Of a stretch of 64,000 nucleotides of DNA, positions 11,996 through 13,267 are shown piece by piece. Position 1 is the first letter of the stretch. Every line of letters starts with the position of its first letter. A model generated the notes under the pieces. It worked only from the letters and a program-made list of their open reading frames with translations. It was not told the DNA's origin and made no database searches. The DNA is from a virus (taxonomy: Duplodnaviria; Caudoviricetes), in the IMG/VR virus record IMGVR_UViG_2857429247_000001, positions 1 to 64,000 of that record; one strand, given 5' to 3'. Position numbers and translations under genes: made by a program.

Positions 11996-12698
11996 GGCAG
12001 ACCTCCTTTGTGGGCCGCGTCGCCGCCGGCGGTATCGCGAGTTGGTCGATGTTGCGTGCGTGGACGCTGAAGGTGACAGCCACGACCCATGGGTTGGCCG
12101 CCCAGGCTTCGGAGCCGTTGATGCTGTTCCAGAGGTGCCGGAAGCGATGGCTCGGGGGTTGGCCGGGTGGCGGCCGTCCCCGCTCTGTCGGCGCGCCGTG
12201 CGTTGGTAGATCGACTGTCAGCGCGCCCTCGTCGATCGCGTCCACCTCGCTGATGTCCTGCAGGCGCTCGACCCGGACGTCCGTCACCAGGAGCGTGAGG
12301 CGGCTGGCCCAGCGCGGCATGTGGATCGACGGGCGCCAGCGAGGCTTCGATCGATCCCAGCCCGCGGCATAGATGGCGGCTTCGTCGCGATCCGCGGGAT
12401 TGACGGTCTGCTGGACGCCTTCGCTCATCCGGTAGGCGGATGACGGGACCAGGGCGTGGTTCTCGCGCACATAGAGGCGGTCGCCGACGGCGAAGCGGCT
12501 GAAGTCCGGCCCGTGCTCCCGAACCTCCGCTTCAGTCGCGTTGACGATCCCGCCGTGAGTATTGCTGAGGTGAAAGCGATCAGACACCCCGGGCATCAGC
12601 TCGGGCTGCGGCTTGAGGATCCGGCGAGTCATAGTCTTGCGCCCATCCAGAAGGGCCTTAACCATAGGGGCGGAAAAGATTATGGGTCGGTCCGTCAT
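11988..12698 (-). CDS. ASCH-like phage protein
   Basis: [52 protein letters not shown].ANPWV motifs. Confidence 0.8.
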   Translation of the reverse strand: [236 protein letters not shown]

Positions 12699-13267
12699 CG
12701 CCAGAGCCTCCCAAGAGCAATTCGGCTGATCAGTGTCTGCGAGACTTGGAAGCGGCTGGCGATCTCTCGTTGCCGAACCTTTTGGCCCAGCAAGGCGCGG
12801 ATCTCGACAACCTTTTGATCGTTCAGCTTTGCTGCGCCATTGCGCACGCCGATCATCCGGACAATCGGTTGGATGAGGCGGCCCTTCTCCACGGCATCGG
12901 CCATGTTGTCGGATTGAGAGCCGGGACGAAGGTGAGCAGGGTTGATGCACCGAGGGTTGTCGCAACGGTGGAGAAGGTGCGTGCCTTCCGGAATGGGACC
13001 GAAGCCAAGTTCATAGGCAAGCCGATGAGCGTAGTGCTGCCGGCCGTTGATCGTCAGCGTCCCGTAGCCGTGATTATTCGCGGTGCGCTGCCAGACCCAG
13101 CACCCGTCATCAGGAGCATCATCAAGGCCGTTCGCAAGACGACGGGCGAGGTGCTCAGGCGCGTTGCGGTCCTCGCCTCGTCGTACATAGAGCTTGCGCC
13201 GCGTCTTCCGGCCGGCGAGCAGTGCCGCGATCATCGGAGCTGAGAAGATGAGGGGACGGTCAGCCAC
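12695..13267 (-). CDS. HNH homing endonuclease fused to the host gene's N-terminus
   Basis: CWVW, [24 protein letters not shown]...N; C-terminal HTH; first 22 aa duplicate the downstream gene start. Confidence 0.85.
   Translation of the reverse strand: [190 protein letters not shown]

Follow-up and report, generated by a model that had tools for sequence, protein, structure and literature searches.

Introduction

To our knowledge, homing endonucleases have been thought to survive inside genes only when housed in introns or inteins, and otherwise to lie between genes. The mobile endonuclease open reading frames (mORFs) of the fungal mitochondrial 'gene hybrids', found in atp6 of Allomyces macrogynus and in atp6, atp9, cox2 and nad3 of Glomus, introduce a foreign C-terminus, downstream of which the native one persists (PMC3630166, citing 1994 Allomyces work). 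Here we analysed a locus in the 64,000-nucleotide window formed by positions 1-64,000 of the IMG/VR record IMGVR_UViG_2857429247_000001 (Caudoviricetes; all coordinates are window positions), in which the open reading frame (ORF) of an HNH nuclease interrupts a conserved phage gene of the phrog_874 family. The 5' end of this gene is present twice, as the leader of the HNH ORF (copy 1) and as the 5' end of the restored gene (copy 2). The sequence evidence makes it highly probable that the locus holds a site-specific HNH_3-type (His-Me finger) homing-endonuclease cassette inside a protein-coding gene, without intron or intein.

An earlier note on this DNA had proposed that an HNH homing endonuclease takes over the 5' end of its host gene and rebuilds a recoded copy downstream; the results below support this interpretation overall and modify some of its parts. 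A literature search of incomplete coverage found no description of such a layout in phages, only in fungal mitochondria.

Results

The phrog_874 gene is interrupted in frame after codon 22

The DUF5131 gene (Gp37/Gp68 family, the resident upstream gene; 13260-14147; Pfam PF07505, 6.9e-60), the HNH ORF (12695-13267; 190 codons) and the phrog_874 gene (11988-12698) form, in this order, three translationally coupled genes on the minus strand, to which all features described here belong. A prophage-type IMG/VR record (L013/L014), whose DUF5131 is 82% identical in protein and ~91% in DNA to that of the window, has the same GTGGCTGA junction at the end of DUF5131 (...GGAGGTGGCCCGTGGCTGA) and runs from it straight into an uninterrupted, HNH-free phrog_874 gene with a V start. 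Related genomes thus show presence/absence polymorphism at a fixed site, and the earlier note's expectation that in phages lacking the HNH the first copy would be joined directly to the rest of the gene is borne out. In Burkholderia phage phiBt-TXDOH, DUF5131 is likewise coupled directly to the phrog_874 gene.

Copy 1 (13202-13267; 22 codons with a GTG start) matches the uninterrupted gene of L013 at 56/66 nucleotides, up to CGG AAG ACG, while copy 2 is ~67% identical to it over the first 60 nucleotides. Past CGG AAG ACG the window turns to HNH sequence (CGG CGC AAG CTC TAT...). Since copy 1 follows the relative until ACG and gives way there to the HNH, copy 1 is the native 5' end of the invaded gene, now serving as the leader of the nuclease, and the HNH-specific body (13201-12698) was inserted after codon 22. 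The junction lies between 13202 and 13201, after GGC CGG AAG ACG (G R K T), and the cassette is in frame within a conserved ASCH-fold phage gene.

Between copy 1 and copy 2 (12633-12698), 16 of the 21 non-start residues in codons 1-22 are identical, and 11 of those 16 are encoded by a different codon; the counts given earlier (17/22 identical residues, 11/16 synonymous codon differences) hold. At the nucleotide level the copies agree at 44/66 positions, with a longest exact run of 5 nucleotides. Residues 1-34 of the HNH ORF match the profile of phrog_874 (E 7e-5), to which the downstream gene belongs, and in tblastn each copy was found with the other ORF as query (E ~1e-4 in the small search and ~1e-5 in the whole record). 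Because the leader matches phrog_874 and the tblastn matches are reciprocal, the likeness of the two copies reflects homology and not chance.

The nuclease has a single available translation start, borrowed from the invaded gene

The HNH ORF contains an HNH_3 domain (PF13392; 1.1e-12, 47.8 bits against a cutoff of 24.8), whose catalytic core spans residues 78-123 (12899-13036), and matches PHROG HNH endonuclease families down to 7e-32. The residues of the catalytic motif (H100, C102, D103, C107, H112 and N121) do not vary among 60 family members. The AlphaFold2 (AF2) model has a predicted local distance difference test score (pLDDT) of 88, and its best PDB match in Foldseek is I-HmuI (1u3e; probability 1.00, with a weak E of 0.018), followed by I-PpoI and other His-Me finger proteins, likewise with weak E-values. 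Domain matches and model together indicate that the nuclease is an ordinary HNH_3/I-HmuI-like enzyme. Its C-terminal region (12701-12841) is modelled as three helices (residues 150-161, 166-173 and 177-184) in a helix-turn-helix (HTH)-like arrangement and is a putative DNA-recognition module, with weak HTH profile matches (HTH hits of relatives; phrog_517 'HTH DNA binding protein', 4.5e-4).

Upstream of codon 70, the HNH ORF offers in-frame start codons at positions 1 and 12 alone, with no ATG, GTG or TTG between codons 12 and 70. A 22-residue segment conserved throughout the family begins at codon 23, and in all 61 family members Met is absent from the stretch that separates the copy-1 region from the HLARRL motif. 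Translation therefore has to begin inside copy 1. The GTG start lies within GTGGCTGA, where it overlaps the DUF5131 stop, and a GGAGG (13274-13278) precedes it in the 3' end of DUF5131. On the reading frame, the nuclease must start in copy 1 by way of the same resident GGAGG and GTG that L013 uses for the intact gene, and the 3' end of DUF5131, with its GGAGG and the stop/start overlap in GTGGCTGA, probably drives the translation of whichever ORF comes next. The resident ribosome-binding site, start codon and first 22 codons are thus the only translation start available to the nuclease. Two claims of the earlier note find confirmation here: that the first copy keeps the native coupling to DUF5131, given that the GTGGCTGA junction is the same in L013, and that the element inserted about 22 codons into the gene and borrowed its start, given the empty site of L013 and the lack of a start between codons 12 and 70.

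The restored gene is complete and carries an imported 5' end

Downstream, the invaded gene is complete (236 codons; phrog_874, unknown function, matched over residues 1-221 with 5.7e-65). Its ATG overlaps the HNH stop (ATGA), and its putative ribosome-binding site, GGGAGG (12707-12712), lies 8 nucleotides upstream of this ATG in the 3' end of the HNH ORF, whose last codons therefore encode it; both features had been described before and are present as described. G-rich stretches like GGGAGG also precede the start of copy 2 in L087, L167, L372, L373 and L292. The cassette consists of the nuclease body and a foreign copy of the displaced 5' end, so that a full-length host protein is still possible.

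The restored gene gave no Pfam match (E up to 10, ASCH PF04266 included), no NCBIfam match and no PDB sequence match. Its AlphaFold model, built with 63 homologues, has a pLDDT of 84, and ten of the 14 best-ranked Foldseek matches listed, including the top ten, are ASCH-type proteins (YqfB, EF3133, Lactobacillus crispatus ASCH, PH0355 and ZmASCH among them), with probabilities of 0.99-1.00 for the top six, overall E-values of 5e-3 to 0.3 and target-normalised TM scores of 0.41-0.75. The modelling thus suggests that the invaded gene is ASCH-like at the level of the fold only, with large insertions; of the earlier designation as an ASCH-like gene, the fold match stands and a Pfam ASCH sequence match is lacking. 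Helix 1 and strand 2 flank the insertion point, which coincides with GRKTQTRR, the most conserved motif of the family.

The GC content at third codon positions (GC3) is 0.87 for DUF5131 and 0.77 for copy 1, compared with 0.68 for the HNH body and 0.64 for copy 2, in agreement with the earlier remark that copy 2 is AT-richer, like the HNH. By GC3 the right edge of the foreign tract lies between codons 15 and 55 of the restored gene, an estimate from 20-codon windows that are too noisy to place it more closely. In L175, copy 1 is a long variant of the family (PMIRALLREIEQPGTGKT; LREIEQPGTGKT) and copy 2 a short one (PMVRAILDGRKT), and copy 2 is therefore no local duplicate. We considered whether copy 2 had arisen on the spot by deliberate recoding of copy 1 and rejected this on the differing length variants of L175, the HNH-like GC3 and the low divergence from L381 described below. 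Copy 2 is, on these comparisons, an imported sequence and was not rebuilt from copy 1: the earlier claim that the gene is restored downstream stands with the full-length phrog_874 gene, whereas a 5' end recoded from copy 1 does not. The synonymous differences have the look of a foreign, long-diverged homologue and need not reflect a designed rewrite.

Against L013, the restored gene is 28-67% identical over its first 345 nucleotides and returns to 88-92% at gene nucleotides 360-450 (12338-12248). This return of identity makes it a chimera, imported in its 5' part and of the resident type in its 3' part. The tract 12632-12340 is almost unalignable with L013, and an imported tract and a hypervariable region of the family look alike there; comparison with L381 is more informative.

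The cassette has moved as a unit

L381 has a DUF5131 allele 44% identical in protein to that of the window. Between the two, the cassette differs by 2% overall, with 11/503 differences in the HNH body, 2/66 (3%) in copy 2 and 0/68 in the adjoining 12565-12632; divergence rises to ~12% both in copy 1 (8/66, 12.1%) and in the 200 nucleotides past the cassette (12365-12564; 23/200). Relative to the low-divergence block, the excess is significant for copy 1 (Fisher p = 3e-4) and for the 200-nucleotide segment (p = 2e-7). All eight differences in copy 1 fall at 13223-13255, and its last 21 nucleotides are identical. The divergence pattern therefore places a recently shared block at approximately 12565-13222, with which GC3 agrees roughly and which is close to the extent assigned to the element before.

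L370 and L371, contigs from different samples, share a 100% identical block that opens 17 nucleotides ahead of copy 1 and reaches into copy 2 as far as its QTRRV codons; on either side of this block their identity is 30-85%, and the bodies of their invaded genes differ. In both comparisons (L370/L371 and the window with L381), the cassette has spread horizontally and independently of the flanking genome. We also considered that copy 1 might always be the recipient's own sequence; as a general rule this was rejected, copy 1 being inside the identical block in L370/L371.

In the eight elements compared, copies 1 and 2 share exact runs of 4-9 nucleotides at 50-67% nucleotide identity. With exact repeats this short (at most 9 nucleotides), loss of the cassette by recombination between the repeats should therefore be rare.

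In L380, a near-identical relative, the restored gene has a 1-nucleotide deletion at the equivalent of 12590, which is either a real frameshift or an assembly error, and the gene is called from a start ~110 nucleotides downstream of the HNH stop that does not overlap it.

The layout recurs at the same codon in many backgrounds

A search of 5.8 billion proteins returned ~65 clusters of ~190-residue HNH proteins at 96-100% query coverage, all of them with a phrog_874-type N-terminus (M..RPILFSAPMVRALL.GRK.) followed by the conserved 22-residue segment. They come from prophages of Alpha-, Beta- and Gammaproteobacteria and from metagenomes; the sources include metagenome-assembled genomes (MAGs) of Hyphomonas, Hyphomicrobiales and Rhodocyclaceae, as well as Mixta, Pantoea and marine metagenomes. 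Genomic context was recovered for ~25 distinct elements. In ~19 of them a phrog_874 gene starts 1 nucleotide (ATGA/GTGA) or 5 nucleotides (ATGACTGA) before the HNH stop, and the genes upstream differ (DUF5131, a methyltransferase neighbourhood, a RecT neighbourhood, unknowns). The search that the earlier note had suggested, for other HNHs whose N-termini duplicate the downstream gene, is answered by these ~65 clusters and ~19 elements. HNH-free alleles exist, many phages and prophages of unrelated background have the layout at one and the same codon, and the cassette has moved between backgrounds as a unit.

Several members show signs of decay. Truncated HNHs are found in L305 and L307, which is the decay expected of selfish nuclease genes. 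In the enterobacterial prophage copies of Pantoea (L171/L214) and Mixta mediterraneensis (L177) the HNH leader is degenerate (MRERPILLNADMVRNTNTNARIY...), with the ...LDGRKT part gone; at the HNH stop, Mixta keeps the restored gene (DGRKTMTRR) and Pantoea has an unrelated gene. These copies look like old, decaying insertions. In L293 (116-760) the HNH ORF extends into ...VVALTLDVHKRNIDAMRNYPE, which resembles the C-terminal end of phrog_874, and copy 2, together with most of the invaded gene, seems to have been lost in a deletion. L088 (3052-3531) holds an HNH of 48% identity that lacks the ASCH-like leader and immediately follows an unannotated ORF (L088:2620-2991), so that ordinary free-standing genes belong to this nuclease lineage as well.

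Carried copies deviate at three codons of the insertion point

The canonical K-T-Q-T-R-R at the insertion point is found in 58/75 uninterrupted genes and in 1/18 carried copies (Fisher p ~1e-7, calculated from 16 of the carried copies; the other two are also deviants). The variants in carried copies are K-T-M or K-S-M (7), K-T-V (5) and K-S-Q, K-F-Q or L-S-Q (5). In the window, codons 21-23 of the restored gene read AAG ACT ATG (K T M; 12630-12638) where uninterrupted genes have AAG ACG CAG, and this is the proposed immunity variant. At the nucleotide level, the consensus AAG ACG CAG is retained in as few as 20%, 10% and 30-40% of the carried copies at several positions, while the next codons, ACG CGG CGG, keep the consensus in the same copies; base composition alone therefore does not explain the cluster. 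Such a cluster fits a recognition or cleavage site that spans the insertion point, with carried copies that would be resistant to it. The cleavage immunity proposed in the earlier note would depend on this cluster, as the proposed resistance to recombination would on the short exact repeats. The lone canonical carried copy (GRKTQTRR, L305/L306) sits beside a truncated HNH that matches residues 1-130 only, which, as one case, would fit a relaxed need for immunity after the death of the nuclease.

Neighbouring sequences

A 12-nucleotide junction, GCCCGTGGCTGA (...A R G stop, overlapping GTG GCT GA.), occurs twice on the minus strand, at 14139-14150, where it links the upstream gene to DUF5131, and at 13259-13270, where it links DUF5131 to the next ORF. 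Because the same junction is used twice, both genes 3' of it begin V-A-E or V-A-D. L013 has the second GCCCGTGGCTGA junction, and a similar ...GGARG end lies ahead of its DUF5131.

Within the DUF5131 gene, ~150 nucleotides (660-810) are ~40% identical to L013, against ~91% for the rest of the gene, and the DUF5131 of L381 (L381:2-562) shares only the last ~25 residues with that of the window. Below threshold, DUF5131 also matches the model 'radical SAM mobile pair protein A' (TIGR04471; 1.1e-9, with 38 bits where the cutoff is 355). In L373-L375 (the P0016 contig group), an IS605-type OrfB/TnpB lies two genes downstream of the cassette (4429 onward).

Discussion

These comparisons are consistent with the following course of events. 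The nuclease would cut or nick uninterrupted alleles at or beside the conserved AAG-ACG-CAG (K-T-Q), and the break would be repaired from a cassette-bearing genome, with copy 1 and any upstream homology as the left arm and the conserved TRR codons and the gene body past copy 2 as the right arm. Through this repair the target would acquire the nuclease gene together with the replacement 5' end. The carried copy would escape cutting through its altered K-T-Q codons (K-T-M here), and the two copies would share too little exact sequence for recombination to remove the cassette. We consider it somewhat more probable than the contrary that this is one large and well-populated case of a general, hitherto undescribed 'home-and-rescue' strategy of homing endonucleases in phage genes, combining a borrowed start, a resistant replacement 5' end and target homology on both sides, with homing into any allele regardless of its neighbours and without splicing, and with specificity and immunity both residing in the three codons AAG ACG CAG.

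Several findings weigh against the reading as a homing cassette. A downstream phrog_874 gene is missing from five elements (Pantoea L171/L214, L178, L293, L304 and L378): decay of the layout is possible, and other causes may maintain the nuclease. Among uninterrupted genes, 17/75 are also non-canonical at K-T-Q, and the carried copies share descent, so that 17/18 is not 17 independent events; the K-T-Q variants could be a marker of lineage and not of immunity. The position of copy 1 inside the identical block of L370/L371 means that it is not always the recipient's own. Finally, the region is generally mosaic, with divergent patches against L013 in DUF5131 and in the 3' half of the invaded gene, and the right-hand boundary of the cassette in the window is therefore approximate.

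This mosaicism, which exists independently of the HNH, and the five elements that retain the HNH without a downstream phrog_874 gene are also what would be expected if the nuclease were a passive passenger, shuffled with the adjacent gene end by phage mosaic recombination and kept not through spread by cutting this gene but for a different function (defence, DNA packaging or the exclusion of competing phages, for example). We regard this as unlikely: the same insertion codon is used in ~65 diverged clusters and many backgrounds, the edges of the identical block of L370/L371 coincide with the two copies of the gene end, and substitutions in the carried copies cluster exactly at the codons of the insertion site. 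A still less probable alternative, to which we give very little credence, is an old, fixed fusion, in which the 22 ASCH-like residues would be an integral part of the HNH (for example binding a neighbouring protein or DNA) and would stem from a single tandem duplication inherited vertically in an immobile gene. In favour of such a fusion, P5, I6, F8, M12, A15 and L17 of the leader reach at least 90% conservation across the HNH family, and its helix is modelled at a pLDDT of ~81. Against such immobility stand the close relative without HNH at an otherwise identical junction, the identical cassette in unrelated flanks, the occurrence of copy 1 as different length variants of the family, and the way in which copy 1 tracks the local background (56/66 nucleotides shared with L013; 12% divergence from L381 versus 2%).

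That the nuclease ORF is in frame with an upstream gene fragment, as in many intron-encoded endonucleases, could also point to a hidden splicing element, with the HNH ORF and copy 2 forming an intron (or the HNH an intein) and copy 1 being joined to the gene body. This is the explanation that we find hardest to credit. An Rfam scan of 11800-14300 at E up to 1 returned no family and no ribozyme, and intein motifs were not found. The HNH ORF has its own stop. The gene that follows is intact: it has a ribosome-binding site and a start codon to itself, and its alignment with phrog_874 begins at residue 1. Splicing would leave no duplication in the product, which would make copy 2 pointless. The earlier note's statement that no intron or intein features are seen agrees with this. 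The homing cassette inserted into phrog_874 is thus the reading that best accommodates the locus.

If so, phages would have a third solution to life inside a gene, next to introns or inteins and to positions between genes: the gene end is duplicated, the old end becomes the start of the nuclease and a new end is provided for the host gene. This case contributes a large family confined to a single codon position, an allele with the site empty, a cassette that is 100% identical between two backgrounds and a statistical signal at the candidate target site. It would explain a class of short 'orphan' N-terminal duplications and of mis-annotated HNH starts in phage genomes, and would offer a mechanism by which the 5' end of a gene is replaced by that of a distant phage. 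With three candidate codons, 18 carried copies (17 of them variant and putatively resistant) and 58 canonical, putatively sensitive alleles, it also makes a natural test case for the co-evolution of target specificity and self-immunity, and it may be seen as a natural counterpart of engineered cleave-and-rescue gene drives.

Comparison with known systems

With the free-standing HNH and GIY-YIG endonucleases of phages ('intronless homing': the T4 Seg and Mob proteins, I-HmuI relatives; reviewed in PMC2988022, surveyed in PMC10448857), the cassette shares a nuclease of the HNH_3 type, whose helical C-terminal region is a putative DNA-binding module, together with presence/absence polymorphism between related phages, co-conversion of flanks and location at the boundaries of genetic exchange. 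Those endonucleases differ in that they are expressed from signals of their own in the spaces between genes, or divide a gene into two pieces that are made separately, whereas the nuclease described here lies within a gene, is fused to its start and rescues it with a carried copy. No such fusion or duplication is described by Barth et al. 2023 (PMC10448857). Like the endonucleases of introns and inteins, the cassette occupies a fixed codon in a conserved coding sequence and has homology to the target gene on both sides, and its homing would therefore be independent of the neighbouring genes. In contrast to them, it preserves the integrity of the gene by duplication and re-initiation of translation and not by splicing of RNA or protein.

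The closest parallel is offered by the mORF gene hybrids of fungal mitochondria. In both systems an endonuclease ORF lies inside a coding sequence, with which it is in phase, and the gene remains whole because the element brings a foreign duplicate of the end that it displaces. The native end adjoins the element and resembles endonuclease-free relatives, and no intron or intein is involved. The two end copies of the hybrids are only ~60-65% identical in DNA, much like the divergent copies found here. The hybrids differ in that their 3' end is replaced, by LAGLIDADG or GIY-YIG endonucleases and in organelles, whereas here it is the 5' end, an HNH nuclease, and phages and prophages. By analogy, then, the phage cassette works like a mORF hybrid and is not a member of that set: its native remnant is not dead as in the hybrids and supplies the nuclease with a ribosome-binding site, a start codon and its first 22 residues, and the restored gene, unlike that of the hybrids, needs start signals of its own and has them inside the 3' end of the nuclease gene.

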